Shown here: one piece after another, positions 14,043 to 64,000 of the stretch
How positions within the stretch are numbered: position 1 is the first letter of the stretch
How the letters are laid out: the number at the start of each line of letters is the position of its first letter
From: Alphaproteobacteria bacterium
GTDB taxonomy: Bacteria > Pseudomonadota > Alphaproteobacteria > UBA9219 > RFNS01
NCBI GenBank assembly: GCA_016124955.1
Contig: WGMR01000007.1
Coordinates: forward strand, 154,103 to 218,102
Direction: 5' to 3'
DNA length: 64,000 nucleotides
Program-made: the position numbers and the translations under genes
Notes under the pieces: generated by a model
Seen by the model: the letters and a program-made list of their open reading frames with translations, nothing else
What the model was told of the DNA's origin: nothing
Database searches by the model: none

Positions 14043-15385
14043 TGAAGATGCGCGCGCCGCGCGGCTTTCTGGCCGGGCTGCTTGCGGCCTGGCTGGGGTT
14101 TGGCGTTTTTGCCTCGCTCGCGATGCTGGTGCCGGAAGCGGCTGTGGAAAAGACGCTGCAGGCAAATTGGTCGCCGCCGAGCGCGGAACAGCTGCACATG
14201 TTGCCGGGCGATTATTTTACCGAATGCGCGATGATGAGCGCAGCGATGACTACGGGCCGCAGCCTGTTGCACAGGGTTTTGAACCCGCTTTTGATGGTGC
14301 CGCCCGACCATTACTGCCGCAACCTTGCGAAGATGGTGCACAAGGAAGCGGCGCAGGTGCCTAAATTGAATGCGCGCTACTGGCAGGGCCCCGCGTTTTT
14401 GCTGCGCGCGCTGTTGCCCGCCATCGGCCCCGGCGGCATGCGGCTTTGTTACCTTTGGCTCACCATCACCGGCATCGGTTTTTTTCTTTTGGCGGCGCGG
14501 CGGCACCCGGCGCTGGTGGTCGTTGCGGGTACGCTGTTTGCGGGTTGCTTCGCGTTCGCGCATTGGGGCGGGATGCAAACAAACCTCGCACATGCGCCGG
14601 TTTTTATAATCGCGCCGTGGCTGCTTGGCGTTTGCCTGCTGCGCGAAAAACGTGCGGCAGACGCGGCGCGGCGGGAATATGTGTGGCTCGCGGGCGCGGG
14701 CGCGCTCGGCGCGCTCACGGCGTTCTTCGATATGCTGTTCGGCGGGATACCTTTCAACCTTATGCTGCTTATGCTTACGCTTTCATTGCGTCATGATGCG
14801 CGCTTCAGTGATGCGTTTGCGGGCGCGCTTGCGTTTGCGGCCGGATTGGGCGCGACGATTTTGCTGAAGCTTGTCGCGGTCGCGGCGCTGATGGGCGATA
14901 CAGTATTCATCAATAATTTCTTCGATCATTTGCTTTATAGAATGCAGGGCGTGGACACGGGCGAAGAAAAAGCCCTTTACGCCACCCCGGTCGAAGCGCT
15001 TTTGACCTATCAGCCCGGTTTTGCCGCGCTGCCCTGGATGGGCGCGTGGCTTTACGGCGCTATCATGGCCGCGGGCGGGGCGGCCGCGATCGGGCTGCCC
15101 GTGATTTTCGGGTCGCGGCCCACCCCTTCGCCAATATGGCGGCTGTATGGAAGCGGCATGCTTGCGGTGCTTGTGTTTCCGGCCTGGTACATGGTTTTTG
15201 CCAACCACACGCTGCATCACCCGCATTTTATGCTGCGTTTCGCGCTGCTTGCCCCGCTTGCCGCGCTTGCGCTTGCCGCGCTGCTGTTATTCGGGGTAAA
15301 AAGCATACCCTCCGGCCGCGAAGCTGCTATGCTTGATAAAGGCCCCCTCGCGGCGGGACCGGGAAAAACAAGGCGCGGACCATGA
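14042..15385 (+). CDS. Uncharacterised polytopic membrane protein (possible GT-C fold) inserted between gatA and gatB
   Basis: 447 aa, roughly 10-11 hydrophobic segments, ARYWQG and FFDML motifs; TGATG overlap with gatA and ATGA overlap with gatB. Confidence 0.75.
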
Positions 15386-39189: not shown

Positions 39190-39726
39190 ATGACGCCTGA
39201 AGCGGCAACGCCGGAAGCCCTGATGTGCGCCGCGCAGGCAGGCGACAAACAGGCCTATACAAAGCTTTTGCGGTCACTTACCGGCCCGCTGCAGGGATAT
39301 ATTGCCCGTAAAACGCCCGCCAAGGACCGCGAGGAGGTGCTGCAAAACGTGCTGCTTTCGCTGCACCGGGCGCGGCACACCTATGACCCGGCCAAGCCGT
39401 TGATGCCGTGGGTTATGGCAATCGCGCGCTATCGCCTCAATGACTATTGGCGCCACCATTATGGCCGCCATATGGGCGAAACCGACGATATAGAAGATTT
39501 TAAGGCCGCTTTGGCGACCGATGTAACCGAAGGCATGGAAAACAGCGAAGATATAAGAAGGGTCATGGCGGGCCTGCCGGAAAAGCAGCGGAAAATACTG
39601 CAGCTTATGTATGGCGAGGATAAGAGCGTGACCGAGGTTGCGGGCGAAATGGGCATGAGCGTTTCCGCCGTTAAGGTGGCGGCGCACCGCAGCTACAAGG
39701 TTTTCAGAAAGTCGATGAAGGCATGA
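39190..39726 (+). CDS. sigF: ECF RNA polymerase sigma factor, SigF/ECF16 type
   Basis: LM.AAQAGD..AY, HRARHTYDP.KP..PW..AIARY, LPEKQR, SVSAVKVAAHR; directly upstream of nrsF. Confidence 0.88.
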   Translation: MTPEAATPEALMCAAQAGDKQAYTKLLRSLTGPLQGYIARKTPAKDREEVLQNVLLSLHRARHTYDPAKPLMPWVMAIARYRLNDYWRHHYGRHMGETDDIEDFKAALATDVTEGMENSEDIRRVMAGLPEKQRKILQLMYGEDKSVTEVAGEMGMSVSAVKVAAHRSYKVFRKSMKA

Positions 39727-39738
39727 AGGCATGAAGTT

Positions 39739-40380
39739 ATGACAAGCAGGATCGATCAAACGATTGAAAGCATTGTGGCCGGTGCGGCGCCGGTGCGCCT
39801 GGCGCGGCCGTGGCTGCTTTTGCTCGGCTGGCTTGCTGCCACCTTTGCCGGAACCTGCGCGATAGTGTTGTTCCTTGCGCCGCGGCATGATCTTGCTTTG
39901 CAGCTTGCCTCCCCGCTGTTCCTTGCCGAAGCGGCAACGCTGGCCGCGCTTGTGATTACATCCGGCGCTGCCGGGGTGTGGCTTGGGTTCCCGGATATGC
40001 GGCAGCAACGCGCCATTCCGTTCGCGCCCGTTCCGTTCCTGCTGCTGTATGTCGGGCTTCTGGGGTACCGGCTTATGCATCCCGAATTGAACGGTGCGCC
40101 CGCACCCGAAGAGCACGGCATAAATTGCGCGCTGTGCATCGCGATTTTTGCCGTCATTCCCGGGCTTTGGATGTTTCGCTTGTTGCGGCGCAATGCGCCG
40201 GCGCACCCTCGCCTTGCGGGTGCGATCGCATTGCTGGCTGCATCCTCGACCGGGCACCTTGTGCTGAAATTTGCGGAATCGGACGATTCGGTGCTGCATT
40301 TTGCCGAATCCCACTTGCTGCCCATGCTGGCGCTTGCCATTCTGGGCGCGTTTCTCGGGCGTAAATATCTTTCCTGGTGA
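39739..40380 (+). CDS. nrsF: NrsF/DUF1109 anti-sigma factor (cognate)
   Basis: IDQTIESI...PVR, PRHDL, HGINC, APAHPRLAG, GRKYLSW; follows sigma gene. Confidence 0.85.
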   Translation: MTSRIDQTIESIVAGAAPVRLARPWLLLLGWLAATFAGTCAIVLFLAPRHDLALQLASPLFLAEAATLAALVITSGAAGVWLGFPDMRQQRAIPFAPVPFLLLYVGLLGYRLMHPELNGAPAPEEHGINCALCIAIFAVIPGLWMFRLLRRNAPAHPRLAGAIALLAASSTGHLVLKFAESDDSVLHFAESHLLPMLALAILGAFLGRKYLSW

Positions 40381-40381
40381 T

Positions 40382-40407
40382 GTAACCGGGCCGGTATGGG
40401 CGGCGAA
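40382..40407 (+). promoter_or_regulatory. SigF(ECF16)-type promoter for bufA1-bufB-bufC
   Basis: GTAACC-GGGCCGGTATGGGCGG-CGAA exact consensus, 57 nt upstream of precursor ATG. Confidence 0.82.
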
Positions 40408-40463
40408 TGAAACCGTGCAGGCACCCCGCCTGCCGTTAATAACTTTCCACAGGAGAGAGAACC

Positions 40464-40736
40464 ATGAACAAGACGATGCTTTGTGCCGCCCTTGCGGGCG
40501 TGCTTGCTGCAGGTGCTGCCGGCGCCGCTTTCGCCGAGGACCACGATATGAAGATGGAAGCCAAGGAAAAATGTTATGGCGTCGCCAAGGCCGGCAAGAA
40601 TGATTGCAAATCGGCCAACGGTTCGCACGCCTGCGCCGGTCACGCCACGACGGATAACGATCCGTATGAATGGAAGCTGGTTGACACCGGCGCCTGCGAA
40701 GGCATGGGCGGCACGCTTGCGCCCCCGGCTGAATAA
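40464..40736 (+). CDS. bufA1: Bufferin precursor peptide (DUF2282)
   Basis: Sec signal then [14 protein letters not shown]...HACAG...W..V..GAC; ACAGGAG RBS. Confidence 0.92.
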
Positions 40737-40746
40737 GCGTTGGGAC

Positions 40747-40808
40747 GAAAAAAGAACGGGGCGCGGACCGGCTTTCACAAAAAAGCGCGGTCCGCGCCTT
40801 TCTTTTTC
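40747..40808 (+). terminator. Long intercistronic hairpin between bufA1 and bufB
   Basis: GGCGCGGACCG/CGGTCCGCGCC 11 bp stem flanked by A-rich and T-rich arms. Confidence 0.65.
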
Positions 40809-40819
40809 AGGCGACAGAC

Positions 40820-41686
40820 ATGAGCGGCGGCGCATATCCATTTCTCGGTTTCGGTGCGGGGCTGCGCGCCCCGCATTACGAGGATGTTATTGCACGGCGG
40901 CCCGCGCTCGATTGGTTTGAGATTATTTCCGAAAACTTTCTTGATGCGCATGAAGGCTATTGGCAGATGCTGGCCGATCTGCGCGCCGATTACCCTTTCG
41001 TCATGCACGGCGTTTCGCTTTCGATCGGCGGGCCCGACCCGCTGGATGAGGCGTATCTGGCCAAGCTCAAAGACCTTGCCGCTTTCCTGAGCCCGGCCTG
41101 GGTTTCCGACCATCTGTGTTTTACCGGGCTTGGCGGCCACAATACGCATGATTTGCTGCCGCTGCCCTATACCGAAAAGGCGCTTTCCCATATTGCCGCG
41201 CGCGTGCATAAGGCCCAGGAATCTCTTGGCCGCCCGCTGGTGCTTGAGAACCCTTCGAGTTATTTCGAATATGCGGCGTCCGACATCCCGGAATGGGAAT
41301 TTTTGCGCGCGCTGGCGCAGCGGACCGGCTGCGGGCTTTTGCTTGACGTGAACAATGTTTATGTCAGCGCCTTTAATCACGGCTACGACGCGCGCGCCTA
41401 TATCGACGCGATGCCCGCGGGGCAGATCGCGCAAATGCATCTGGCGGGGCACCTGAACAAGGGCACGCATATCATCGATACGCATGACGCGCATGTGATC
41501 GACGCGGTGTGGGATCTGTATGCCTATGCCGTGCAGCAAAAGGGGCTTGTGAGCAGCATGGTGGAATGGGACGAACAGATCCCGCCGCTTGCTGTGTTGC
41601 TGGAAGAGGTGGGCAAGGCGCGCCGCCATGCACAAGCCGCGCAAACGGCAAAAGAGGCGGGGCATGCAATACCGCAATGCGCTTGA
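40820..41686 (+). CDS. bufB: Multinuclear non-heme iron oxidase (DUF692/MNIO)
   Basis: G.GLR..HY, FEIISENF, HGVSLSIG, WVSDHL, DLLPLPYT, LENPSSY, LLLDVNNVYVS, HLAGH, DTH, VEWD. Confidence 0.95.
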   Translation: MSGGAYPFLGFGAGLRAPHYEDVIARRPALDWFEIISENFLDAHEGYWQMLADLRADYPFVMHGVSLSIGGPDPLDEAYLAKLKDLAAFLSPAWVSDHLCFTGLGGHNTHDLLPLPYTEKALSHIAARVHKAQESLGRPLVLENPSSYFEYAASDIPEWEFLRALAQRTGCGLLLDVNNVYVSAFNHGYDARAYIDAMPAGQIAQMHLAGHLNKGTHIIDTHDAHVIDAVWDLYAYAVQQKGLVSSMVEWDEQIPPLAVLLEEVGKARRHAQAAQTAKEAGHAIPQCA

Positions 41687-42416
41687 ACGCGTACAGCGCG
41701 CCGTAATCACCGGCAAGACTGCGCCGGCGCAGCCGTTGTTGCGCCCGCATGAGCGTATGAGCGCGCGCGAACAGCTGGATATTTATGTGCAAGGCTATCG
41801 CCATCGTCTGATAAGCGCGGTACGCGCGGATTACCCCGCGCTCGGGCGCTATCTCGGCGATGCGACGATGGAGCGGTTGGCGCGCGGCTATGCGGCGCAA
41901 ACGCCTTCGCAAAGCTATAATCTCGATTTCTATCCCTTTGCCTTCCGCCGTTTTGTGCGCGAAACCCATGCCGATCCGGCCGCGCACGCGCTTGCCGCGC
42001 TTGAAGGCGTGATGGCCGAGGTGTTTATGGGCCCGCGCAGCGAAGCGCTGAGCGTTGGCGCGCTGGCCGGCGTTACGGGCGAGACGCTGGAGCGCATGCA
42101 TCTGGCGCTGCGCCCGGCGAGCGAGCTTTTGTGTCTTGCGCACGATGCGCCCGCTTATCTTGATGCCTTTAAACGCGGGGATCCCGCGACAATTGCAGCC
42201 GCGCCTACATACCTTTATCTGTACCGGCACCAGAACGAGGTACGGCGCGCCCGGCTGGCGCCCTGGGAATATGGGTTTCTTTCCGTGCTGGGCGGGGAAG
42301 GGGCCCCGCTGGGCGCGGCCGCCGAACATGCGGGCGGCGCACAGCTTTTACAGTGTTTGCCGCGCTGGATCGCCGAAGGTTTCTTCCGCGCGGCGCCGCC
42401 CGACCGCGGGCTTTAA
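41664..42416 (+). CDS. bufC: DUF2063 MNIO partner protein
   Basis: QLDIYVQGY..RL...YPAL..YLG...F/Y; AAGAGG RBS; overlaps bufB end. Confidence 0.85.
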   Translation: MQYRNALERVQRAVITGKTAPAQPLLRPHERMSAREQLDIYVQGYRHRLISAVRADYPALGRYLGDATMERLARGYAAQTPSQSYNLDFYPFAFRRFVRETHADPAAHALAALEGVMAEVFMGPRSEALSVGALAGVTGETLERMHLALRPASELLCLAHDAPAYLDAFKRGDPATIAAAPTYLYLYRHQNEVRRARLAPWEYGFLSVLGGEGAPLGAAAEHAGGAQLLQCLPRWIAEGFFRAAPPDRGL

Positions 42417-51472: not shown

Positions 51473-52357
51473 CTATTGCTCCAGCGCGATCGGGTCGATA
51501 CCCGCGTCGGCTGCGATGGCGGCGTTGACGGAAGCGCCATCGAGCTTCTTGCCGTCGCCGTCCTTGATGGCGCGGGCACAGGCCTGATCGAGCGCGAGGA
51601 TGGATTTATCGGGGTTGTTGCGGTTGCGGATGAAGCGGTCGGTCAACTTGGCGATGCGTTCGCAATCCTTGTCGGCGATCGTGATGTTGTAATATTTTTC
51701 GAAATTGCGCTTCATGTTGATCAGGATGCTGACGGTTTGTTTCACGTCCGGCTGCTCCAGAACAATCTTCTGGAAACGGCGATCGACGGCGGGATCGAGC
51801 TTCACATAATCTTCGTATTCTTCCCGCGTGGTGGCGCCCACCACATAGATATCGCCGGTGGTCAGATAGGGTTTCATCAAATCGGCGACGCCGGCGGCGG
51901 ACGAGCTTTTGAAAGCGACCGTGAGCTGGTGGAATTCGTCGATACAGAAAATAATCGGCGGCAATTCGCGGGTTGCGTTGCGTTCGGCCACGCCCTTGAC
52001 GATCGGCATCAGCCTTCCTTCAAGATCGGCGCGCGACGTGGACCCGGCGCCGACCATCGACATTTCAAGTTCAATGATGCGCGCGCCCTTGAGCGGCCCC
52101 GGCACCTTGTTGTTATTGATAAGCTGCGCGAGGCCGATGAACAAAGCGGTTTTGCCCACCCCCGCGCCGCCGAGCAACAGGACGTTTTTGCGCAGACGTT
52201 GCAGCAGGATAAGAACCATTTTATCGATTTCCTCATCCCGGTTCGAGATGGGATCGAACTTGCCCGCCTTGTCGGCCGCGGTAATATCGCGCGTGTAGCG
52301 GTGGATCAGATCGTCAAGCTCCTGATCGCCGATGGAAAAGCGTTTCTTTGCGGTCAT
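51473..52357 (-). CDS. Stand-alone ClpA/ClpB D1-type AAA+ ATPase (single NBD)
   Basis: GKFDPI.NRDEEI, GGAGVGKT, CIDEFH, GATT.EEY, DPAVDRRFQ, PDKSI..LD; lacks N-domain, M-domain and D2. Confidence 0.88.
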   Translation of the reverse strand: MTAKKRFSIGDQELDDLIHRYTRDITAADKAGKFDPISNRDEEIDKMVLILLQRLRKNVLLLGGAGVGKTALFIGLAQLINNNKVPGPLKGARIIELEMSMVGAGSTSRADLEGRLMPIVKGVAERNATRELPPIIFCIDEFHQLTVAFKSSSAAGVADLMKPYLTTGDIYVVGATTREEYEDYVKLDPAVDRRFQKIVLEQPDVKQTVSILINMKRNFEKYYNITIADKDCERIAKLTDRFIRNRNNPDKSILALDQACARAIKDGDGKKLDGASVNAAIAADAGIDPIALEQ

Positions 52358-53985: not shown

Positions 53986-56715
53986 TCAGGCTGCCTTCGC
54001 CGCAAGGCCGCGCAGCACATAGTGCAAAATGCCGCCATGTTTGAAGTAATCGACCTCGTCGAGCGTATCGATACGGCTGCGCAACTTCACCTCGTCCGTT
54101 GTGCCATCGGCGCGGCGGACGACAAGCGTGATTTCCATGCGCGGCTTGATCGCGCCGGCAAAGCCGCCGAGATCGAAGGTTTCGCCGCCCGTGAGCTTGA
54201 GGTTGGCCCGCGTCATGCCGCCCGTAAATTCGAGCGGCAGCACGCCCATGCCGACAAGGTTGGAACGGTGGATACGCTCGAAGCTTTCGGCAACGACCGC
54301 CCGCACGCCCAGAAGGCGCGTGCCCTTGGCGGCCCAGTCGCGGCTCGAGCCCGTGCCGTATTCCTTGCCCGCCACCACAATCAGCGGCACGCCGTCTTTC
54401 ATGTAACGCATGGCGACGTCATAGATCGTCATCGCTTCGCCGGACGGGAAATGCTTGGTGTTGCCGCCTTCGGGCACAACCATGTTGCCGTCGGAGGCGT
54501 TTTCGGCCATCAGCTCGTTTTTGATGCGGATGTTGGCGAAAGTGCCGCGCATCATCACTTCATGGTTGCCGCGCCGCGCGCCGTAGGAATTAAAATCGGC
54601 GGCCTGCACGCCATGATCCGTAAGGTAGCTGCCCGCGGGGCTGGTTTTCTTGATGTTACCGGCGGGGGATATGTGGTCGGTCGTGATGCTGTCGCCGAAC
54701 AGCGCGAGCAGCCGCGCGCCCTTGATATCGTTCAGCGGCGCGGGTGCCACGCCCATGCCGTCGAAGATGGGCGGCAGGCGCACATAGGTGGAAGCATCTT
54801 CCCACGCATAGACCTTGCCGGTGGCGGTGGCGATGCTGCTCCATTCCTTCGGGCCCTTGAATACATTGGCGTAGCGCGAACGGAACATTTCCTGCGTCAA
54901 CGCCTGTTTGACCGCGGCGTTGATGTCCGCGAGGCTGGGCCAGATATCCTTCAGGTAAACCGGGTTGCCGTCCTTGCCGGTGCCGAGCGGATCCTTGGTG
55001 ATATCGATCGCCATGTTGCCCGCAAGCGCGTAGGCGACAACAAGCGGCGGCGAAGCAAGATAGTTGGCCTTGGTTTGCGGGTTGACGCGGCCTTCGAAAT
55101 TGCGGTTGCCGGAAAGCACGGCGCAGGCGGTCAGATCGCCTTCCGTGATCGCCTTGCTGATGTTTTCGGGAAGGGGCCCCGAATTGCCGATGCAGGTCGT
55201 GCAGCCATAGCCGACAAGGTTGAAGCCGATGGCATCGAGATCGCCTTGCAGGTTTGCCTTTTCAAGGTAATCGGTCACCACCTGGCTGCCGGGCGCGAGC
55301 GAGGTTTTCACCCACGGCTTGACGGTAAGGCCGCGCGCCCGCGCGTTGCGCGCGACAAGGCCGGCGGCGACCATCACGCTCGGGTTCGATGTGTTGGTGC
55401 ATGATGTAATGGCGGCGATCACGACATCGCCATGCTTCAGGTCGAAGTTCGTGCCTTCGACCGCGATTTTCTTGCCGCGCAGCTCGGGCGTGACCTTGAA
55501 GCTCGGCAGTTCCTTTTCAAATTCCGTCGCGGCGGTGGAAAGGGTTACGCGGTCTTGCGGGCGGCGCGGCCCGGCGATCGAGGCTTGCACCGTCGAAAGA
55601 TCGAGCGAGAGCGTGTCGGTGAAGACGGGATCTGGCGTGCTCGCATCGCGCCACATGCCTTGCGCCTTGGCATAGGCTTCAACAAGCGCGCAGCGGTCAG
55701 CCTCGCGGCCGGTGAATTTAAGGTAGTTGATGGTTTCGGCATCGACCGGGAAAATGCCGCAGGTGGCGCCGTATTCGGGCGCCATATTGGCGATGGTCGC
55801 GCGGTCGGCCAGCGTCATGCCGTCAAGGCCCGGGCCGTAGAATTCCACAAATTTTCCAACCACGCTTTTTTTGCGCAGCATTTGCGTGACCGTGAGCACA
55901 AGGTCGGTCGCGGTCGTGCCTTCGGGCAGGCGGCCGGAAAGCTTGAAGCCGACCACTTCGGGGATCAGCATCGAAACCGGCTGGCCCAGCATGGCCGCTT
56001 CGGCTTCGATCCCGCCCACGCCCCATCCGAGCACGGCGAGGCCGTTGATCATGGTTGTGTGGCTATCGGTGCCGACAAGCGTATCGGGGTAGGCGACCGT
56101 TTTGCCGTTTTCGGCATCGGTATCGGCCCAGACCACCTGTGCGAGATATTCGAGATTGACCTGGTGGCAGATGCCGGTGCCCGGCGGCACGACACGGAAA
56201 TTATCGAACGCGTTCTGGCCCCAGCGCAGAAACTTGTAGCGCTCGCCGTTGCGTTCGAATTCGCGCTGCACGTTGACGCCGAACGCCTTGGTGCTGCCGA
56301 ATTCATCGACCATCACGGAATGGTCGATCACGAGATCGACCGGGCAAAGCGGGTTCACGCGCTGCGGATCGCCGCCCATCTTGATCGCGACTTCGCGCAT
56401 GGTCGCGAGATCGACCACGGCGGGAACGCCGGTGAAATCCTGCATCAGCACGCGCGCGGGACGGTAGGCGACCTCGGTGTCGCTTTTTTTATCCTTGAGC
56501 CAGCCGGCAAGCGCCCTGACATCGTCCACGGTGACCGAACGCCCGTCTTCATAACGCAGCAGGTTTTCAAGCAAAACCTTCAGGCAGAAGGGAAGGCGGC
56601 TGATGTCCCCGAGATGCTTTTCCGCCAGCTTGAGGCTGAAATAATCATATGCCTTGCCGGCCGCTTCCAGTGTGGCGCGGGTTTTCAGCGTATCGTGGCC
56701 GGTGTGGGTGGGCAT
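53986..56715 (-). CDS. acnA: Aconitate hydratase A
   Basis: [72 protein letters not shown]. Confidence 0.99.
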
Positions 56716-56841: not shown

Positions 56842-57243
56842 ATGAAACGGTTCTGGCTGCTTGTGCCGCTTGTCGCATGCCTTTACGTGCCGGGCGTAGC
56901 GCACGCCGCTTTCATCTATTGCAACCGTTATGCGGAACCGATCGAAGCGGCGCTTGGCTACCGCGAAGGCGGGCAATGGGTTTCCGAAGGCTGGTGGCGG
57001 ATCGAGCCCGACAAATGCCTGCGGGTTTACGGCCCCGCGCTGTCCGCCCGCTTCTATTTCTATTTCGCCCGCTCGCTCGGCCCCGCGCATCAGGAATGGG
57101 GCGGCAAATACCGTTTCTGCACTGACGACAAGCCCTTCCGCATCGAAGGCGATATGGACTGCAATCCTCGCGGCTATCTCGATGCCGGCTTTGCGCAAGC
57201 CGATGTAGGCCAGGAAAAGGCCTTTACGCTGGATTTCAACTAA
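56842..57243 (+). CDS. DUF1036 family exported protein
   Basis: Signal peptide; CN...A.GY..WVSEGWW.I.P..C, RFYFYFA, WGG...FC, C..RGY...GF. Confidence 0.85.
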   Translation: MKRFWLLVPLVACLYVPGVAHAAFIYCNRYAEPIEAALGYREGGQWVSEGWWRIEPDKCLRVYGPALSARFYFYFARSLGPAHQEWGGKYRFCTDDKPFRIEGDMDCNPRGYLDAGFAQADVGQEKAFTLDFN

Positions 57244-57491: not shown

Positions 57492-57890
57492 ATGCCCGCC
57501 GTTCCGAGCTGGGCCGATCAGGACGAAATGCTTCGTTCGCTCTGGCAGGAAGGCAAACAGCCGGAAGAAATTGCTGAAAAACTGGGCCGTTCGGTAGCGG
57601 CTGTGATGACGCGCGCCGCGCGCCTTGGGTTGCCGCGCCGCTTCGCGCCGGGGCGCAAACCAAGCCAGAAGCGGGCTGAAGGGGAAGTAACCCAACCCGG
57701 CATGGCCCGCCGTTACACAACCCCCGCTGCAGAAGCCAAGCCGGCTGAACCGATGGTTGAGCGCGTATGCCTGATGTGTTTAACCAAATTTCCATCCGCA
57801 GGGCGGCATAACCGTATTTGCAACAGCTGCAAGGATTCGAACGATTACGCAGCCGGCAACCGGCTGCCCGACCTCGACTTTCCGGAGTAA
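57492..57890 (+). CDS. GcrA-like N-terminal HTH protein with C-terminal C4 zinc finger
   Basis: SW..DEMLRSLWQEG....IAEKLGRS..AV..RA.RLGL; RVCLMC..FPS.G..NRICNSCK; start may be GTG 57450. Confidence 0.75.
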   Translation: MPAVPSWADQDEMLRSLWQEGKQPEEIAEKLGRSVAAVMTRAARLGLPRRFAPGRKPSQKRAEGEVTQPGMARRYTTPAAEAKPAEPMVERVCLMCLTKFPSAGRHNRICNSCKDSNDYAAGNRLPDLDFPE

Positions 57891-57896
57891 ACCGCC

Positions 57897-58538
57897 ATGG
57901 CCATCCGCGACGCCGTTCAGACCATTGTTAATCGCAACGCTTATTACCGCGATGGTTACAGGCTTATGCTGCGGCTCAGCATCATCCTCGCGCTCGTTAT
58001 CCTTGTGCTCACCGGGTCGCTGATCGGCATGATTGTCACCACCAACGTGCAGCATGTGTTTTTCGCCACCACATCGGACGGCCGCATCATGCCGATCGTG
58101 CCGCTGAGCGATTCCTTTATCAGCCGCGGCGACCTGGTTTCGTGGGTGGCCGATACAACCAAGCGCGTGATGCAGTTCGGTTACCACGATTACCGCGAAC
58201 GGCTGCAGGATTCGGCGCAGTATTTCACCGCCGATGGTTGGGAGAGTTTCACCAAATCCGTTTTGAAGGAAGCGCGCATCATTGAAACCATCACCGCGCG
58301 GCGTCTCGTTGTCGATGCCGAAATCGATGCCGCGCCCGAAGTGGTGGCCGAAGGCAATAACAACGGCATCTATACATGGGTGGTGCGCGTGCCGATCACG
58401 GTCAAATATATGGGCGACAAGGCGCCGGCCGAACAGCGGCTTGATCTGCAGCTGACCATCGTGCGCGTCTCGACGCTCGAACGTTCGAAGGGCATCGGCA
58501 TCAAGCAATGGATCGCCGCGCCGCGGCAGACGCGTTAA
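57897..58538 (+). CDS. icmL: Dot/Icm type IVB secretion protein IcmL/DotI (TraM family)
   Basis: RN.YYRDG, FFATTSDGRI.P, DYRE.LQ..YFTADGW..F, W.VR.P..V.Y, RVSTLE..KGIGI.Q. Confidence 0.92.
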   Translation: MAIRDAVQTIVNRNAYYRDGYRLMLRLSIILALVILVLTGSLIGMIVTTNVQHVFFATTSDGRIMPIVPLSDSFISRGDLVSWVADTTKRVMQFGYHDYRERLQDSAQYFTADGWESFTKSVLKEARIIETITARRLVVDAEIDAAPEVVAEGNNNGIYTWVVRVPITVKYMGDKAPAEQRLDLQLTIVRVSTLERSKGIGIKQWIAAPRQTR

Positions 58539-58544
58539 CGCCCC

Positions 58545-59330
58545 ATGGCAAATCAGACTGCCCCACCGAAAAACCCGGCCGCCGCAGCGGGCGCCGCGCT
58601 TTCGCGGGCGCTGGTGCCGCTGCGCCGCGGGGGGACGGAAAGCGCAACCGTGCGCACGCGTCCGCGCGGCAAGGACGGTCCGTTCGGCCTGTTCGACGAC
58701 ACGCTCACGGCCGCCGAGGCGCGGCTTGATCTTCGGACCTTCCACGCGCGCTTCACGCGTTTGCGCCGGCTTGTGATGATGGAGGTGTGGGCGATCATCG
58801 CGCTTGTGGGGCTGATGATTGTCGGCGTGCCCATGCTGGGCACCAAGAACGTCTATTTCGCCACCACGCCTGCGGGGCAGGTCAAGCGCATGGTTGCGCT
58901 GACCATGCCGAACATGACGCACCAGGCCGTGCTTTCGTGGGTGACCACGACCGTAACCCAGGTCATGACCTACAACTTCGCGAACTTTAACCAGGAGATA
59001 TCGAAGCATCAGCGCAAGTTCCTGTCCAAAAGCTGGGAACAGTTCGTCAAGGTTCTGCTGCAGGACGACATGCTGAAAAAGTTCCAGCAACAGGAATTGG
59101 TGCTGACGACGGCGCCGTTCGGCGCGCCCGTGATCACATCGGAAGGGGTTGTGGACAAACGCTATCAGTGGGTTGTGCAGCTGCCCGTTATCATGAACTA
59201 TGTGACCAACAACAACCGCAGCGTGCAAAGACGCAATATTGTTGAATTGACCGTGGTGCGGGTGCCGACCACGGAAAACCCGGACGGCGTTGCCATCAAG
59301 GTGTGGAACGCCAAGAAACGTAAGGAATAA
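58545..59330 (+). CDS. icmL: Second IcmL/DotI family protein
   Basis: YFATTP.GQ, VLSWV, MTYNFANF, F...W..F, W.VQLP..M.Y, V.RVPT.ENPDG.AI. Confidence 0.88.
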   Translation: MANQTAPPKNPAAAAGAALSRALVPLRRGGTESATVRTRPRGKDGPFGLFDDTLTAAEARLDLRTFHARFTRLRRLVMMEVWAIIALVGLMIVGVPMLGTKNVYFATTPAGQVKRMVALTMPNMTHQAVLSWVTTTVTQVMTYNFANFNQEISKHQRKFLSKSWEQFVKVLLQDDMLKKFQQQELVLTTAPFGAPVITSEGVVDKRYQWVVQLPVIMNYVTNNNRSVQRRNIVELTVVRVPTTENPDGVAIKVWNAKKRKE

Positions 59331-59477
59331 GGATGATTTGCCCGGGCAAGGCTGAAAAGTACCGGTTTTGTGTGGCTGCGGGGCAACCGGGCCCGGTCAA
59401 GGGCCGTGCCCGCACATGGCGGGTCGCCAATTTGCTTAACGCCCTGCATAATAAAGGTTATAACCGGAAAATAAGGT

Positions 59478-59484
59478 TGATTCG
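59478..59484 (+). promoter_or_regulatory. TGATTCG (extended GANTC) motif upstream of icmK
   Basis: In a 221 bp intergenic gap, about 70 nt before the icmK start. Confidence 0.35.
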
Positions 59485-59551
59485 GCGCGCCACGGCGCCG
59501 TGCCAGCCGCGCGGCGGTCCCGGCGAAACGGGGCCCGGTGAAGGATTGTGT

Positions 59552-60544
59552 ATGCGCTCGTTGCCCATGTTCCCAGCCCTGCTGATGCTGTGCGCCTTTC
59601 TGGCGCTTATGCCGCGCATGGCCGGCGCACAGGAAGGCGGCATTGATCTGCCTGCGCCGCCGCAATCCGGCGAAATTACATCCGATCCCGATCTTTTGAT
59701 GATGGAAGCCAGCGAAGCGGCTGCGGCGGCGGAGATGGATGCCGAGCAGGAGCGTGCCAAAGAAAAGCACAATGATTTATCCTACGAGCGCGCGACCATG
59801 AGCACGCTGCCGCTTTCGCCCGAACAGGTGCGCGCCTTCATGCGCCGCCTTGAAACCACGCAGGAAGCGGCGGTGCCGCCCACGACCGGTGCGCCGAAGG
59901 GCGAGGTGAAGGTCCAGACCGTTTCGCTTGATCCCGGCGTCGATCCGCCGGTCGTCAACGTGGCGGCCGGTTATGTCACCACGATCGCGATGCTGGATTC
60001 GACCGGCGAACCGTGGCCGATCCTCGATGTCGGCGTCGGCGGCAACTTTGAAGTGTCGCCCACCGCCGCGGGCACGCATGTTGTCCGCATCACGCCGCTG
60101 ACCCGTTTTGGCGATGGCAATATCTCGGTCCTGCTCAAGGAATTCAAGACCCCGATCATCTTCCGCCTCGTCGCCGGCGGGCCGAAGGTGCATCTGCGTT
60201 TCGATGCCCGCATACCGATGATAGGGCCCAACGGCAAGGCCCCGCTGATCAGCCGCCCGCGCCTGAGCGCCGGCGACGCCCTGATCATGGCGTTTCTCGA
60301 TAACGCGCCGCCGCGCGATGCCAAGCGCCTGAAGGTTGGCGGCATGGATACGCGCACCATGGCATGGTCGATGGGGGAAAAGGTTTTCGTGCGCACGCCG
60401 CTGACCTTGCTGTCGCCCGCCTGGAATGCCAGTGTTGCTTCATCGGACGGGATGACGGTTTACGAAATAGGTGATGCGCCCGTGCTGCTTTTGTCGGATA
60501 ACGGCGCGATGGTGCGGGCACGCCTTGCGCGGGAAGAAGAATGA
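59552..60544 (+). CDS. icmK: Dot/Icm outer-membrane core protein IcmK/DotH (TraN family)
   Basis: Signal peptide; LPLSPEQV, VSLDPG..PP.V..A.GYVTT..LDSTG.PWPI, GN.SV.L...TP, R.D.RIP..GPN. Confidence 0.92.
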   Translation: MRSLPMFPALLMLCAFLALMPRMAGAQEGGIDLPAPPQSGEITSDPDLLMMEASEAAAAAEMDAEQERAKEKHNDLSYERATMSTLPLSPEQVRAFMRRLETTQEAAVPPTTGAPKGEVKVQTVSLDPGVDPPVVNVAAGYVTTIAMLDSTGEPWPILDVGVGGNFEVSPTAAGTHVVRITPLTRFGDGNISVLLKEFKTPIIFRLVAGGPKVHLRFDARIPMIGPNGKAPLISRPRLSAGDALIMAFLDNAPPRDAKRLKVGGMDTRTMAWSMGEKVFVRTPLTLLSPAWNASVASSDGMTVYEIGDAPVLLLSDNGAMVRARLAREEE

Positions 60545-62022
60545 TGGCTGATAACGAAGACGATTTCGAAGAACAAGCCGCCGGCTTCGAGGAGTCGATG
60601 GAAGAGCCCGTCCTTTCCGAAGATACGGAAGACGGCGGCGCCGGTCGCCGTGAACGCATGATGGCGAACGTGTCGGAAGCTTGGCGTACGCAGCCCTTCT
60701 TCAAGCTTGTTGTCGTTATGATCGTGGTTGCGGCCGTGATCGCTTCGATCATGAGCCTGACCAGCAGCCCGAACACCCCGGTTCCCTCAAGGGTCGCGAG
60801 CACGCCTGACCTGCGCGAAGCGCCGGGCGGCACCGCGACCCCTGCATTCATCGAAGCGCAAAAACAGGCGGCCGCACAGCGCGCCGCCGCGGCGCAAAAA
60901 ACCGGCGGCAGCGCGATGCCGACGCCGGTCGGCACCGGCATTTCGCTTGATGACCTTGAAAACAAGGACGAGAATGAAGGCGACAAGCTGGCGGAATTCC
61001 GCGACGAACTGGCGCGCATGAAGCAGCAGCAAAAGGTGCAGGTGCAGCAGATCCAGCAGCAGGTGAAGCAGCAACGCCCCGAACAATTCGACGACAAGCT
61101 TTCGCAGGCGATGCGTTCGCAGATGAACCAGTTGCTTGAAGGCTGGCAACCAAAGCAGCTGCAGCTGGTTTCCGGCACTTCGTTGAAGGACGAGCTGAAG
61201 GCGAAGGATGATGCGGGCAAGGATGGCGGCAAGGATGCCCCGGAAACCGCTGCGCCGCCAAGCACCATCCTTGTGCCGGCGGGCACGGTCAATTACGGCC
61301 AGATGCTGACGGAAGCGAATTCGGATGTGCCTGGCCCGATTTTGGCGCAAATCCTTTCCGGCCCGCTTGCGGGCGCGCGCGCGGTCGGTTCGTTCAAATA
61401 TTTCGAAGAATATCTTGTGCTGACCTTTAATCTCATCAGCTACAAGGGCAAGGATTATTCGGTCAATGCGCTCGCGCTCGATCCCGAAAGCACGCTCGGC
61501 GGTCTCGCGACCGAAGTTGATCACCGTTACTTCACGCGTGTGATTTTGCCCGCCGCCGCCGCTTTCGCGCGCGGTATCGGGCGGGCGCTGGCGCAAGGCG
61601 GATCGACCACCACGATCAACAACGATACGACGTTGCAGGAACAGGGCAAGAAAAGCATCAGCCAGGGCGTGTATGAAGGTTTGAGCGAAGCCGGGGAAAC
61701 GGTCGGCACCTTCCTGCAGCAAAAGGCGGATGCAACCAAGACGCTTGTGCGCGTCGCTTCGGGCGCGCCGATCGGGATTTTCTTTGTCGAATCGGTCACA
61801 GACCGCGCGCCGGAACCGCCGTCCTATGCGCCCTATGCCGGCGGCTATTACAACGGCGCCGTGTCGCAAGGCGGTTACGCGCCGCAAGCCGGCTATGCGC
61901 CGCCCGGCAGCGCGCCCGCATACCAGGCCGGTGCGAATGTCACCAACTATCCGCAGCCGGGTTCGGTGCCCGTCCCCAGCACCGCGCCCACAAATGCATC
62001 TTATGCGGCCCCCGCGCCCTGA
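60541..62022 (+). CDS. icmE: Dot/Icm core protein IcmE/DotG (VirB10/TraO-like)
   Basis: Single TM, Gln-rich coiled coil, AGT..Y..M..EANSD.PGP.LA.I.SGPL.GA...GSF, A.A.DP....LAT.VDH.YF. Confidence 0.9.
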   Translation: MMADNEDDFEEQAAGFEESMEEPVLSEDTEDGGAGRRERMMANVSEAWRTQPFFKLVVVMIVVAAVIASIMSLTSSPNTPVPSRVASTPDLREAPGGTATPAFIEAQKQAAAQRAAAAQKTGGSAMPTPVGTGISLDDLENKDENEGDKLAEFRDELARMKQQQKVQVQQIQQQVKQQRPEQFDDKLSQAMRSQMNQLLEGWQPKQLQLVSGTSLKDELKAKDDAGKDGGKDAPETAAPPSTILVPAGTVNYGQMLTEANSDVPGPILAQILSGPLAGARAVGSFKYFEEYLVLTFNLISYKGKDYSVNALALDPESTLGGLATEVDHRYFTRVILPAAAAFARGIGRALAQGGSTTTINNDTTLQEQGKKSISQGVYEGLSEAGETVGTFLQQKADATKTLVRVASGAPIGIFFVESVTDRAPEPPSYAPYAGGYYNGAVSQGGYAPQAGYAPPGSAPAYQAGANVTNYPQPGSVPVPSTAPTNASYAAPAP

Positions 62023-62068
62023 TGCACGCGGTTGCGTCGCGCCACGCACTTTTTGACCGGAGCAGGCC

Positions 62069-63472
62069 ATGAACGACGATCCCTTCAAGAACGACGATCA
62101 GATCCCGGACGACGATTTCGGCGCCGCCGACGATCTTGGGCAGGATCAGTTCGCCACCGAGACGTGGGACGACGGTCAGCCGCCGGTTGACGATTTTGCC
62201 GACATGCCGGCGGATGGCGAACCTGATCCCGCGGCACAGGCCGCTGCACCCGGCCCGGGACAAGGCGGGGAACAGGCTGTTACGCCGGGCCGTAAAAAAT
62301 CTTCAATCCTGATCATGCTTGTCGTCGGGGCCGTGAGCCTGCTCGCGATCGGCGGCGTGGGTTATACGTTCCTTGCGGGCGGACAGACGTTGCCGCCGGC
62401 TATGCCGGCGCCGGACGAAGCTGCGCCGCAACCCGATATGGAAGCAGCGGCGCCGACAACCGGCAGTGCCATGCCGGGCATGGCCATGGATGAAAGCGCG
62501 GCCGACAAGCAAGTCATGGCCAGCGGCACGATCTTTGACGGCATGGAAGGCGCGGCGCCAACGACCCCGGCAGTTGAAGCGGACATGTTGCCGCCCATCA
62601 CCACGGGCGCGCCGGAAAATATCGTGACCGACATGGCGCAAACCGAAGACCTTTCCGTTATTCTGGGGCAAAATGCGCCGCCGGCTGCGCAGGAAGAACC
62701 GGGCCCCGCCATGCCGCCCGCGCAGGAAGCAACCGCGCCGGAACCCGTTGCCGCGCCCGCGCCGCTTGCGGAAACGGCGCTGCCGGTTTCCGAAGCGTTG
62801 CCCGCGCAGCCGGGTGAAGGTGAACAGGCGGTTGCACCGGTCGAGGTTGTGCCTGCAGCACCCGCTTCTGTTGCGGCTCCGGAAGCCGTGCCGGCCACGG
62901 CGGGCGATCTCACGCTTGCGGCACTGCAGAAAGATATCGATGCGCTGCGTCAGGACATTACCGGCATTAAGTCCGATGTCGGCCAACTGATGGCCGCCAT
63001 GGTCAACGGCGGCGCGGTTTCGGATACGGATGTCGGCGCAATCAACAAGCGGCTCGCGAAGGTTGAAGAAAAATTGGCCGGCGTCAGCACAACGCCTGCG
63101 GCCAGCGGGATTAAGGTCGAAAGCAAGACCGTGGTGACGCCCAAACCGACGGACAAAGATACGGCCATGGGAGAGCCGGAAAAAAAGGCGGCAGCGCCCG
63201 CGCCTAAAAAAACGGAACCGAAAAAGGCCGCGCCTAAAAAGACCGAAACCAAGAAGGTTGCCGCCAAGCCCAAGCCTGCCGCCAAACCCGCGCCAAGCTG
63301 GGTGCTGCGTGGCGCCGTGCAAGGCACTGCCTGGGTTTCAAAAAGTGCGCATTCGAGCGAACTGCTTGAGATCAAGGCGGGCGATGTCGTTTCCGGCATC
63401 GGCACGGTGCGCAATATCCGCATGGTCAACGGCAAGTGGCAGGTCGAAGGCAGCAAGGGCATTCTGCGTTAA
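62069..63472 (+). CDS. icmG: Dot/Icm protein IcmG/DotF-like with long Pro/Ala/Lys-rich linker
   Basis: Acidic N-terminus, TM, coiled coil, C-terminal W.LRGAVQG.AWV...GD.V.G.G.V..I; position after icmE as in Legionella. Confidence 0.72.
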   Translation: MNDDPFKNDDQIPDDDFGAADDLGQDQFATETWDDGQPPVDDFADMPADGEPDPAAQAAAPGPGQGGEQAVTPGRKKSSILIMLVVGAVSLLAIGGVGYTFLAGGQTLPPAMPAPDEAAPQPDMEAAAPTTGSAMPGMAMDESAADKQVMASGTIFDGMEGAAPTTPAVEADMLPPITTGAPENIVTDMAQTEDLSVILGQNAPPAAQEEPGPAMPPAQEATAPEPVAAPAPLAETALPVSEALPAQPGEGEQAVAPVEVVPAAPASVAAPEAVPATAGDLTLAALQKDIDALRQDITGIKSDVGQLMAAMVNGGAVSDTDVGAINKRLAKVEEKLAGVSTTPAASGIKVESKTVVTPKPTDKDTAMGEPEKKAAAPAPKKTEPKKAAPKKTETKKVAAKPKPAAKPAPSWVLRGAVQGTAWVSKSAHSSELLEIKAGDVVSGIGTVRNIRMVNGKWQVEGSKGILR

Positions 63473-63485
63473 CGGTGCCCGGCAT

Positions 63486-63510
63486 CCTGCCTTTTCTTGG
63501 CAGGGCTTTT
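63486..63510 (+). terminator. Weak intrinsic terminator after icmG
   Basis: CCTGCC-N7-GGCAGG then GCTTTT. Confidence 0.45.
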
Positions 63511-63589
63511 ATGGTGAATGCGCGCTTAACCCTTTTACCCGCCCAGAATCGCTGCCCGGATGATTGTTTCGAGTGCGAAATTACAAACT

Positions 63590-63596
63590 TGATTCG
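63590..63596 (+). promoter_or_regulatory. TGATTCG (extended GANTC) motif upstream of pilin-like gene
   Basis: AT-rich intergenic region; second GANTC at 63546-63550 and TTAA-N8-TTAA at 63635-63650. Confidence 0.35.
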
Positions 63597-63755
63597 TTTG
63601 GTATATCAGGGCATTCCGGCAAAATTGTCGAAAATTAAATCTTTCTTTAATGCTTTGCGCTTTCCTATAACTGTATGAACAGAAAGAATTTTCCTTGCGC
63701 CCCCCTTGGGGCTTCCGCTTCCCGTCGCGGCCCCGCGGCCGGGCGCGCTATCGCG

Positions 63756-64000
63756 TTGCCGGACCCCGTTCTTGCCGTGCTTAAAAACCCGCTTCTGTTT
63801 GCGCTGACGGTGCTGGCGGCCATGTTTGCCATGCCGGCAAACGCCTTCGCGCAATCGCTCAGCTTCGGCGAGATGATGTGCAATACGTTCACGCAGATGG
63901 GCGAGTTGCCGACCGTCATACAGATCATCTGCTATATAGGCGGCATTTTTGTAATTGCGCTTGGCGTGCAGATGTTGCGCCAGGGCGCCGAAGACGGTTC
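63756..64000 (+). CDS. IcmC/IcmD (DotE/DotP) or TrbC/VirB2 pilin-like protein, 3' truncated by window
   Basis: Open frame VLKNPLLFALTVLAAMFAMPANAFAQSLSFGEMMCNTFTQMGELPTVIQIICYIGGIFVIALGVQMLRQGAEDG; signal-like segment plus hydrophobic helix; expected position after icmG; start 63756 or 63777. Confidence 0.6.
   Translation, partial: MPDPVLAVLKNPLLFALTVLAAMFAMPANAFAQSLSFGEMMCNTFTQMGELPTVIQIICYIGGIFVIALGVQMLRQGAEDG

Follow-up and report, generated by a model that had tools for sequence, protein, structure and literature searches.

How does a Dot/Icm-type, or type IVB, secretion system (T4BSS) come to lie in the chromosome of an alphaproteobacterium, and what would it be used for? The question is raised by the end of a 64,000-nucleotide stretch of contig WGMR01000007.1 from an uncultured alphaproteobacterium (assembly GCA_016124955.1), here called the window. 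An earlier reading made from the letters alone, the sequence-only reading, had seen icmL, a second icmL, icmK, icmE, icmG and a pilin-like gene there, in the order known from Legionella and IncI plasmids, and profile searches find all of these genes at those places. Followed beyond the window, they form the beginning of a locus of ~39.8 kb (57492 to about 97258 in window-equivalent coordinates, the first 6.5 kb inside the window) that appears by homology to be a near-complete T4BSS with an IncI-type thin pilus attached. We consider it moderately probable that the locus encodes a vertically inherited T4BSS, with no relaxase in the cluster, which together with its adhesive pilus would serve contact-dependent protein delivery, probably into prey bacteria.

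The first secretion gene, dotI/icmL (57897–58538; this and the following window genes are on the plus strand), is the equivalent of IncI traM and codes for a component of the inner-membrane complex. Its product matches PF11393 (5e-45) and the NCBIfam family IcmL_DotI (1.5e-46) and, among Protein Data Bank (PDB) entries, Legionella DotI (1.9e-21) and R64 TraM (5e-7). Next comes a second, full-length dotI/icmL paralog (58545–59330; PF11393, 1e-40). It occupies the position of Legionella DotJ/IcmM, yet it has kept the full periplasmic domain and carries an N-terminal extension, and the paralog pair is conserved in relatives. The outer-membrane core complex protein DotH/IcmK, equivalent to IncI TraN, is encoded at 59333–60544 (PF12293, 2e-74) and matches Legionella DotH in PDB entry 6x62 (6.7e-44) and IncI1 TraN (31% identity). 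The true start of dotH is probably 59552, the onset of the signal peptide MRSLPMFPALLML. The core-complex protein DotG/IcmE (IncI TraO, VirB10-like), encoded at 60541–62022, is a short form that matches Pfam TrbI (1e-10) and scores better with NCBIfam IcmE (1.3e-52) than with TraO (3.6e-28). Of its 493 residues, only 161–420 align with the PDB structure of DotG (1.2e-23), to residues 772–1046 of the 1048 in the Legionella protein; only the C-terminal TrbI/VirB10 domain is present.

The gene in the traP position (62069–63472) is dotF/icmG-like. Its product has no Pfam match, a match to NCBIfam IcmG_DotF of 4.7e-4 and no significant hhalign relation to IncI1 TraP. An acidic N terminus in the cytoplasm is followed by a single transmembrane helix and a long linker rich in Pro and Ala, and the C terminus is formed by a conserved β domain of ~60 residues. 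A family profile of this domain has residues 211–253 of Legionella DotF as its best PDB match (E 0.015), and the position of the gene is conserved in relatives. Given position, topology and weak domain matches, the assignment as DotF appears reasonable, and it is the weakest call of the window set. The window ends within the gene for a polytopic membrane protein of 338 residues (63675–64000, the first 108 codons). The full gene lies at L001:7245–8261, where L-numbers are labels of compared loci and L001 and L105 are from the own genome. The protein has six hydrophobic segments. Its N-terminal part is weakly TrbC/VirB2-like (Pfam TrbC, 0.004), which makes "pilin-like" a fair description of the portion inside the window, and its C-terminal part is TraQ/DotE(IcmC)-like (NCBIfam TraQ, 1.6e-14; Pfam DUF6750, 3e-7).

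The own-genome sequence beyond the window was obtained from a 42.8-kb Logan contig of run SRR10063240, which the window proteins match residue for residue and whose position 1 corresponds to window position 56431. Read along this contig (positions 1 to 42812), the gene order opens with the genes for a DUF1036 protein and a GcrA-like protein, dotI, dotI', dotH, dotG, the dotF-like gene and the traQ/dotE-like gene, followed by p126 (TraR/DotP-like), dotN, dotO, dotM, p157 and dotL. After dotL come the genes for a GT4 glycosyltransferase, a Wzy_C protein, the secreted proteins p180 and p521, and p296, and then those for a lytic transglycosylase, a DsbC-like protein and p98, with dotD, dotC, dotB and icmT behind them. 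The remainder codes for a TcpQ/PilL-like protein, the PilN secretin, PilO, PilP, the PilQ ATPase, the PilR platform protein, four PilS-like pilins, two 205-residue proteins and a 464-residue prepilin–Peptidase_S74 protein. A small open reading frame and rluD follow before the contig ends.

The dotO product (993 residues; L001:9570–12551) is a VirB4-family ATPase of the TraU/IcmB(DotO) type that is 28% identical to IncI1 TraU over 98% of its length (blastp E 5e-104; phmmer 345 bits); it has no Pfam match and no relative in the PDB. DotL matches PDB entry 6sz9 and related entries (1.2e-126) over residues 16–595 of 843 only and carries the TraG-D_C "TraM recognition" domain, and its C-terminal tail of ~250 residues gives no alignment to Legionella DotL. 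DotM and DotN match Legionella structures (2.8e-26 and 8.8e-27) as well as NCBIfam DotM (1.9e-57) and IcmJ (9e-35). DotB matches PDB entry 6geb (4.6e-107), and the DotB of relative L026, 81% identical to that of the own genome, scores 423 bits with the DotB model TIGR02524 versus 242 with TraJ. IcmT, DotD and DotC of the own genome match PF28014, PF16816 and PF16932, respectively. Comparison with the IncI1 set by hhalign gained two assignments only, p126 as TraR/DotP-like (94% probability) and p271 as PilP (93% probability). One locus therefore contains two DotI proteins, DotH, DotG, DotF-like, DotE/P-like, DotN, DotO, DotM, DotL, DotD, DotC, DotB and IcmT. No IcmQ, IcmR, IcmF/DotU or DotK was named by Pfam and NCBIfam scans of the cluster, and hhalign of the unassigned cluster families with IncI1 TraV, W, X, Y, L, S, E and F and PilM, I, U and V was negative. 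A strongly conserved cytoplasmic protein, p296, and two proteins of the membrane, p157 and p98, are among the parts specific to the lineage.

Wzy_C is the fold of pilin O-oligosaccharyltransferases, and the pair of a GT4 gene and a gene for an O-antigen-ligase-like Wzy_C protein may have a role of the pilin glycosylation type. Between the Wzy_C gene and p296 there is a variable slot (L105:3681–5800, with p180 and p521; also in L026, L028, L038, L049, L062 and L070). It always consists of a signal-peptide protein of ~165–204 residues and one of ~437–521 residues, and the sequences differ between genomes. The N terminus of p521 is weakly TrbJ/VirB5-like (E 0.0024).

The pil genes downstream of icmT are homologous to and collinear with IncI1 pilL-N-O-P-Q-R-S. 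Identity to the proteins of plasmid pUY_STM96 is 22% for PilL, 29% for PilN, 25% for PilO, 30% for PilP, 30% for PilQ and 27% for PilR, and the resemblance of PilS is weak. The position of PilV is taken by the 464-residue protein, in which a prepilin N terminus is fused to a Peptidase_S74 C terminus with an SDxxxK motif; Rci, a shufflon, PilU and PilM were not found in the locus. Fibres that end in S74 are phage receptor-binding proteins. In Bdellovibrio, the S74 module is used in prey-recognition fibres (PMC10769870). The mosaic adhesive trimer (MAT) fibres of Bdellovibrio bacteriovorus resemble the 464-residue protein in their C-terminal Peptidase_S74 intramolecular-chaperone domain with SDxxxK, in both cases on an adhesin predicted for the cell surface of a predatory bacterium. 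The fibre proteins of Bdellovibrio carry a signal peptide, whereas the S74 domain described here is fused to a type IV prepilin N terminus at the PilV position. The PilS-like genes are tandem and divergent, with four in the own genome and two to six in most relatives that have them (for example, L107:4143–7667, L108:4508–8662 and L218:12882–15558), compared with a single pilS on the IncI plasmid. This arrangement suggests pilin variation or a fibre of mixed subunits. The linkage dotDCB-icmT-pil is conserved in at least 10 relatives.

The setting of the locus is chromosomal. The GC content is flat along the window, and in synonymous codon usage the dot genes stay within the span set by the window's housekeeping genes, as the sequence-only reading had seen when it called the usage host-like and placed the cluster next to acnA (53986–56715, minus strand). 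The Pfam-annotated rest of the window is ordinary chromosome. These ~57 kb comprise a xerD-like fragment, accA, secA, a peptidyl-prolyl isomerase (PPIase) gene, argJ, mutT, ruvX and the gatCAB region; sodB, sugar-nucleotide and glycosyltransferase genes, and a sigma/anti-sigma pair with a bufferin-type cluster; and genes for a Na/H exchanger, HU and an ABC transporter, with lnt and acnA. That reading had also noted no relaxase, integrase or insertion sequence (IS) in the window. Among about 44 of the about 59 called genes upstream of the cluster, covered by Pfam scan or precomputed Pfam hits, there is indeed no relaxase or IS gene, and the sole integrase-family match is the XerD-like fragment at 1–396, adjoining accA. 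The xerD-accA pairing and the secA-PPIase-mutT neighborhood recur in the gene table of Micavibrio aeruginosavorus ARL-13. Searches for tRNA genes and Rfam families found neither in the window.

Had the cluster been flanked beyond the window by a relaxase, an oriT and an integrase, it would have to be viewed as a mobile element. Neither a relaxase nor an integrase gene is present in the 34 kb after the window, where rluD closes the locus. The ~40-kb cluster as a whole lacks both and has no replication gene, and its right flank has no relaxase; no search for oriT was made. An IncI-type NikB (MOBP) relaxase, NikA and maintenance genes of a plasmid or an integrative and conjugative element (ICE) are likewise missing in and beside the cluster, whose annotated flanks are acnA, lnt, the gatCAB region, secA and rluD. 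An ICE or plasmid was rejected on the basis of flanks, synteny and codon usage.

Pattern scans covering one genome per GTDB species revealed 351 stretches or loci encoding DotO and 304 encoding DotL, together with 23 loci for PilQ and 21 for DotH; related genes are thus present in more than 300 species genomes. The records are almost all metagenome-assembled genomes (MAGs) labeled Alphaproteobacteria, Rhodospirillaceae, Micavibrio sp., M. aeruginosavorus or "Bdellovibrionales," the last because NCBI still files Micavibrio under that name. Complete chromosomes of 1.6 and 1.9 Mb are among the DotO carriers, and in the complete chromosome of M. aeruginosavorus HCB189 the genes dotM-p157-dotL are some 10 kb away from dnaA-dnaN-recF-gyrB. 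The acnA left flank is common to L002, L008, L133, L162 and L173, and the rluD-rpoH right flank to L107 and L108; other relatives have housekeeping flanks as well (sufBCDS-pepN-lpxI/secF, uvrA and dnaA-gyrB). Local tblastn and clustering show that some genomes keep the contiguous order of the own genome, and that in others the genes are in pieces (GcrA-like to dotN, dotO-dotM-p157-dotL and dotD-C-B-icmT-pil) at loci 25–400 kb apart. Genomes labeled Micavibrio have dotI-I-H-G-F-E/P-N-O together and dotM-dotL elsewhere. In a subgroup of MAGs (L045:1–16000, L035, L047 and L071), dotL stands alone among housekeeping genes, with sufBCDS-sufT/A-pepN-pagL-lpxI on one side and a SIMPL protein gene, secF and glpK on the other.

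Identity to relatives is 59–75% for DotO, 69–82% for DotB and 49–67% for DotL, compared with 75–79% for AcnA. These identities and the breadth of occurrence indicate strong purifying selection on the encoded proteins. The pattern of flanks and dispersal, taken with the DotO, DotB and AcnA identities, is that of a chromosomal system under selection and vertical inheritance, and a mobile element would look different. MAGs of unrelated genera (Propionivibrio sp., L021 and L128; Alcanivorax sp., L101; Elstera sp., L129) also include contigs with dot/pil genes of the clade at 52–89% identity, most likely through binning contamination rather than horizontal transfer.

The locus was compared with a Legionella adelaidensis record, which supplied DotD, C, B and A and IcmV, W and X, and with an IncI1 plasmid, which supplied the full Tra and Pil set. 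The former (L210; NZ_LR134433.1, "plasmid 24" in PLSDB) carries ribosomal protein genes, ftsY/E/X, rpoH, mutL and dotDCBA-icmVWX and is apparently chromosomal sequence entered as a plasmid. The phmmer scores against Legionella and IncI1, respectively, are 378 and 184 bits for DotB, 149 and 80 for DotC, 75 and 12 for DotD, 154 and 98 for DotH, and 80 and 55 for DotI, so that the components score about twice as high with Legionella Dot/Icm as with IncI1 Tra. Leaving the misfiled Legionella record aside, the best plasmid match of DotB is on Acidovorax pACP3.1 (45%), followed by alphaproteobacterial megaplasmids (about 40%); that of DotO is on a Bosea megaplasmid (43.5% identity). In a neighbor-joining tree of DotB with 200 bootstraps, the clade is monophyletic with 100% support, and the deep order among Legionella, alphaproteobacterial megaplasmids, Acidovorax and IncI1 is weak (12–43%). 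A sister relation to Legionella was dropped in view of these deep nodes. A grouping with IncI conjugative systems, the other result that would have marked the locus as a conjugative element, is not seen in this tree, where the clade does not nest within them.

With Dot/Icm of Legionella and Coxiella burnetii, the locus shares DotB, C, D, F-like, G, H, I with its paralog, L, M, N, O, E/P-like and IcmT. As in Legionella, the local orders are icmL-K-E-G-C/D-J-B and dotD-C-B, and the genes are chromosomal with no relaxase in the cluster; Legionella Dot/Icm is the best-scoring comparator for every component tested. In contrast to Legionella, DotG has 493 residues instead of 1048, the second DotI is full length, and the DotL tail of ~250 residues is unrelated. 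Searches for IcmV, W and X gave no match, there is no DotA in the locus, and an IncI-type thin pilus, the GT4 and Wzy_C genes and a GcrA-like gene are attached. The expectation of a lineage-specific architecture is thereby borne out. The host also differs, being an alphaproteobacterial lineage of probable bacterial predators.

The IncI1 (R64-type) system likewise combines a T4BSS with a type IVb thin pilus and has pilL-N-O-P-Q-R-S collinear at 22–30% identity, the blocks traM-N-O-P-Q-R-(S)-T-U and traH-I-J-K in equal order, and a DsbC-like protein and a lytic transglycosylase. Unlike IncI1, the cluster has no NikA/NikB, Sog primase, exclusion gene or replicon (with no search made for oriT), and it has a prepilin–S74 fibre protein instead of PilV and several tandem pilins, with no shufflon/Rci, PilM or PilU in the locus. 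The system is chromosomal and appears vertically inherited, and identity to IncI1 is only 22–31%. The closest plasmid counterpart of the dotCB-icmT-pil module is that of Acidovorax carolinensis pACP3.1, which shares dotC-dotB-icmT-pilL-N-O-P-Q-R-S, with a DotB identity of 44–45%. On this plasmid (L212; 164642–195724) the order is dotC-dotB-icmT-parM-pilL-N-O-P-Q-R-S, followed by a PilT-like ATPase gene and a chemotaxis-type set (CheY, CheW, methyl-accepting chemotaxis protein and Hpt). Mating pair formation class I (MPF-I) systems such as those of pACP3.1 and the Bosea and Methylorubrum megaplasmids differ in being plasmid-borne, pACP3.1 with a MOBP relaxase, and the clade described here is a separate DotB branch. 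The ancestor was likely a conjugative MPF-I element with a thin pilus, which would have lost its DNA-processing genes and become fixed in the chromosome of the ancestor of the group. The X-T4SS of Xanthomonadales, which according to work cited in PMC12428579 delivers toxic proteins into rival bacteria on contact, is a functional analogue only. It is a VirB/D4 type IVA system with XVIPCD effector signals (the Xanthomonas VirD4-interacting protein conserved domain), and homology extends only to what is common to all type IV secretion systems (T4SSs).

Part of the gene set is already on record for the group. The 2011 genome paper on M. aeruginosavorus ARL-13 stated that there is no type III or type IV secretion system and proposed type I-secreted haemolysins (PMC3189940), and supplementary file 4 of the same paper lists GMV_383 as "icmO" despite that text. 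In GMV_380–385, this gene stands beside gyrB and argS, two hypothetical genes correspond to p157 and DotM, and the order matches gyrB-argS-x-dotL-p157-dotM of strain HCB189 (L077). The supplementary table of the paper shows transcription of the ARL-13 dotL, p157-like and dotM homologs in the attack and attachment phases (PMC3189940). The ARL-13 genes GMV_1530–1544 were considered as DotB and thin pilus genes and set aside; their annotated products (a secretin, two PilT-type ATPases, a leader peptidase, a platform protein and an ATPase) look like a separate pilus/secretion gene set. Needham et al. 2022 reported in one sentence the MacSyFinder system pT4SSi in seven marine Micavibrionales MAGs, grouped with relatives of pathogens. 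Beyond these two sources, the literature on Micavibrio and Micavibrionales yielded nothing on a T4SS, Icm or type IVB; the automatic annotation of the Joint Genome Institute already names homologs IcmO and DotB. The sequence-only reading had mentioned icm homologues in predatory Micavibrio, which agrees with the GMV_383 entry and the seven MAGs and disagrees with the text of the ARL-13 paper. The record thus extends to the existence of the genes and not to their architecture, the link to a pilus or a function.

How might such a system work? With its fibre-like tip protein, the pilus would bind polysaccharide on the surface of another cell and draw the two cells together. The DotL-DotM-DotN coupling complex and the DotB and DotO ATPases would then feed protein substrates through the DotC-D-F-G-H core channel into the contacted cell, which would most likely be Gram-negative prey attacked in the course of epibiotic predation. 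That the target is a bacterium is plausible because the pil genes are homologous to and collinear with those of the IncI1 thin pilus, which is used in mating between bacteria, and because of the S74 protein at the tip position, the dotDCB-icmT-pil linkage, the predatory cultured members and the transcription in ARL-13. Those members of the group that have been cultured live as obligate epibiotic predators (PMC3189940). A more specific version, in which the T4BSS and thin pilus form the prey-attack organelle of epibiotic Micavibrio-type predators, the S74-tipped pilus recognizing prey polysaccharide and the Dot/Icm-like channel injecting lytic or manipulating proteins, is put forward tentatively. 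The sequence-only reading had proposed a T4BSS domesticated for predation or a host-associated life. The chromosomal location, the conservation and the lack of a relaxase in the cluster agree with domestication, and the function stays a proposal.

Several observations weigh against protein delivery into prey. No substrate, effector or translocation signal has been identified for the system. The 40-kb locus has no DotA/TraY, a protein that the known systems cannot do without. Among ~210 loci compared, the sole DotA match is in a related MAG (L016:19923–20915, minus strand; 5.5e-11 to L. adelaidensis DotA), and large multi-transmembrane proteins considered as DotA candidates in the flanks proved to be ComEC, DsbD, an MscS-type channel, an acyltransferase and UvrA. 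Comparison of the cluster families p180, p521, p296, p98 and p157 with L. adelaidensis by phmmer and hhalign revealed no IcmV, IcmW or IcmX, and no cluster gene matched IcmS or LvgA in Pfam and NCBIfam scans, with no direct search made for them; the IcmS gap counts here as well. The components are closer to Legionella Dot/Icm, a system that targets eukaryotic cells, than to IncI1 Tra. In ARL-13, the expression index of icmO is 4.3 in attack and 3.5 in attachment, and dotL, the p157-like gene and dotM are modestly expressed and not induced on attachment. The relaxase scans cover the cluster, about three-quarters of the 57 kb upstream and the right flank only, and a relaxase elsewhere in the source genome is possible. 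Finally, the source organism is an uncultured MAG, whose predatory lifestyle we infer from relatedness to Micavibrio only.

The same closeness to Legionella could mean that effectors are delivered into eukaryotic hosts, the uncultured relatives being associates or parasites of protists. DotB is 48% identical to the Legionella protein (378 bits), and DotC, DotD, DotH and DotI score about twice as high as with IncI1. The lack of a relaxase in the cluster is the MacSyFinder criterion for pT4SSi, which agrees with the grouping by Needham et al. 2022, and the genomes are small (1.6–2.5 Mb). We nevertheless regard delivery into eukaryotes as unlikely. Binding to bacterial surfaces is what IncI-type thin pili and S74 tail-fibre tip proteins are known for, and the cultured Micavibrio prey on bacteria (PMC3189940). 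Neither IcmW and IcmS/LvgA matches (the latter without a direct search) nor an adaptor-binding DotL tail was found in the cluster, and the DotB tree gives no supported sister relation to Legionella.

A conjugation or mobilization apparatus, moving islands, plasmids with a relaxase encoded elsewhere or the chromosome itself, would account for the full coupling protein with its "TraM recognition" domain, for a thin pilus of the IncI mating type and for the dotC-dotB-icmT-pil module on the MOBP plasmid of Acidovorax. Legionella Dot/Icm, moreover, is able to mobilize RSF1010. M. aeruginosavorus has genomic islands with mobA/L-type mobilization genes, and no other T4SS was reported for it (PMC3189940). 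The 40-kb cluster, however, has no relaxase, nikA-like, replication or integration gene (no search for oriT was made), some genomes have the dot genes scattered between essential ones, and the order-wide conservation with syntenic flanks is unlike the patchy spread of conjugative elements; DNA transfer is thus doubtful as the function. It is very improbable that the locus is what is left of an integrated MPF-I element, decaying or silent and without a present function. The missing DotA and several missing Legionella accessory genes would fit a remnant, as would the statement in the ARL-13 paper that there is no T4SS (PMC3189940), but all reading frames are intact across 40 kb, amino acid identity is 60–82% across hundreds of species, codon usage is adapted to the host, and ARL-13 transcribes its homologs of dotL, p157 and dotM.

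Several genes around the secretion cluster may belong to it. The GcrA-like gene (57492–57890, plus strand) is a candidate regulator of the cluster. Its match to Pfam GcrA (1e-5, 26.5 bits) is just under the cutoff, and the protein combines a DNA-binding region of GcrA type at its N terminus with a CxxC...CxxC motif conserved at the C terminus. About 25 related genomes have the gene immediately before dotI, at 48–60% identity. In five relatives, a gene for a ComEC/Rec2 DNA-uptake channel is found 2–4 kb upstream of the GcrA-like gene (L019:1878–4061, minus strand; L006, L011, L013 and L022); this is probably coincidental synteny, though relevant to a role in DNA transfer. Between acnA and the cluster, a secreted DUF1036 protein is encoded (56842–57243, plus strand; PF06282, 1e-32). 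Its gene has an equal position in L002, L008 and L133 and lies near dotM in L143; it is possibly an accessory gene, or merely a conserved neighbor. A stand-alone AAA+ ATPase of about 295 residues (51473–52357, minus strand; Pfam AAA and AAA_lid_9) is encoded 5.5 kb upstream of dotI. Homologs adjoin T4BSS genes in relatives, between dotB and icmT (L126:3395–4279, 70% identity), 0.4 kb after dotO (L163:13384–14250) and next to dotM together with DUF1036 (L143:19631–20488), and the ATPase may be an unrecognized partner of the secretion system. Within the cluster, a terminator-like hairpin of seven pairs followed by a T-run (63485–63505, plus strand) begins 13 nucleotides after the stop codon of the dotF-like gene. 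It is the strongest such site, but the total of such sites in the region is not above chance; it is possibly an attenuating boundary within the operon.

Elsewhere in the window, an open reading frame of 447 residues (14042–15385) with a signal-peptide-like N terminus and no Pfam match lies between gatA and gatB and breaks the usual gatCAB arrangement. At 39190–42416, an extracytoplasmic function (ECF) sigma factor and an NrsF anti-sigma factor are followed by a bufferin-type peptide cluster (BufA1, MbnB/DUF692 and HvfC_N), and a second NrsF-family gene is found near the window start (1974–2612).

An intact, group-wide type IVB system with its own adhesive pilus is a concrete candidate contact machine, which can be tested in cultured M. 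aeruginosavorus. It extends the known distribution of Dot/Icm-like systems to carriers other than Legionellales and plasmids. With IncI-type architecture, Legionella-like sequences and no relaxase in the cluster, it would be a natural intermediate, useful for the history that leads from conjugation machine to effector injector. If the T4BSS and its pilus are a prey-attack organelle, it would be the first among type IVB systems to have killing or feeding on bacteria as its dedicated task, Dot/Icm-like channels having so far been tied to conjugation and attack on eukaryotes, and a conjugation machine would have been domesticated into a predatory weapon across a whole bacterial order.

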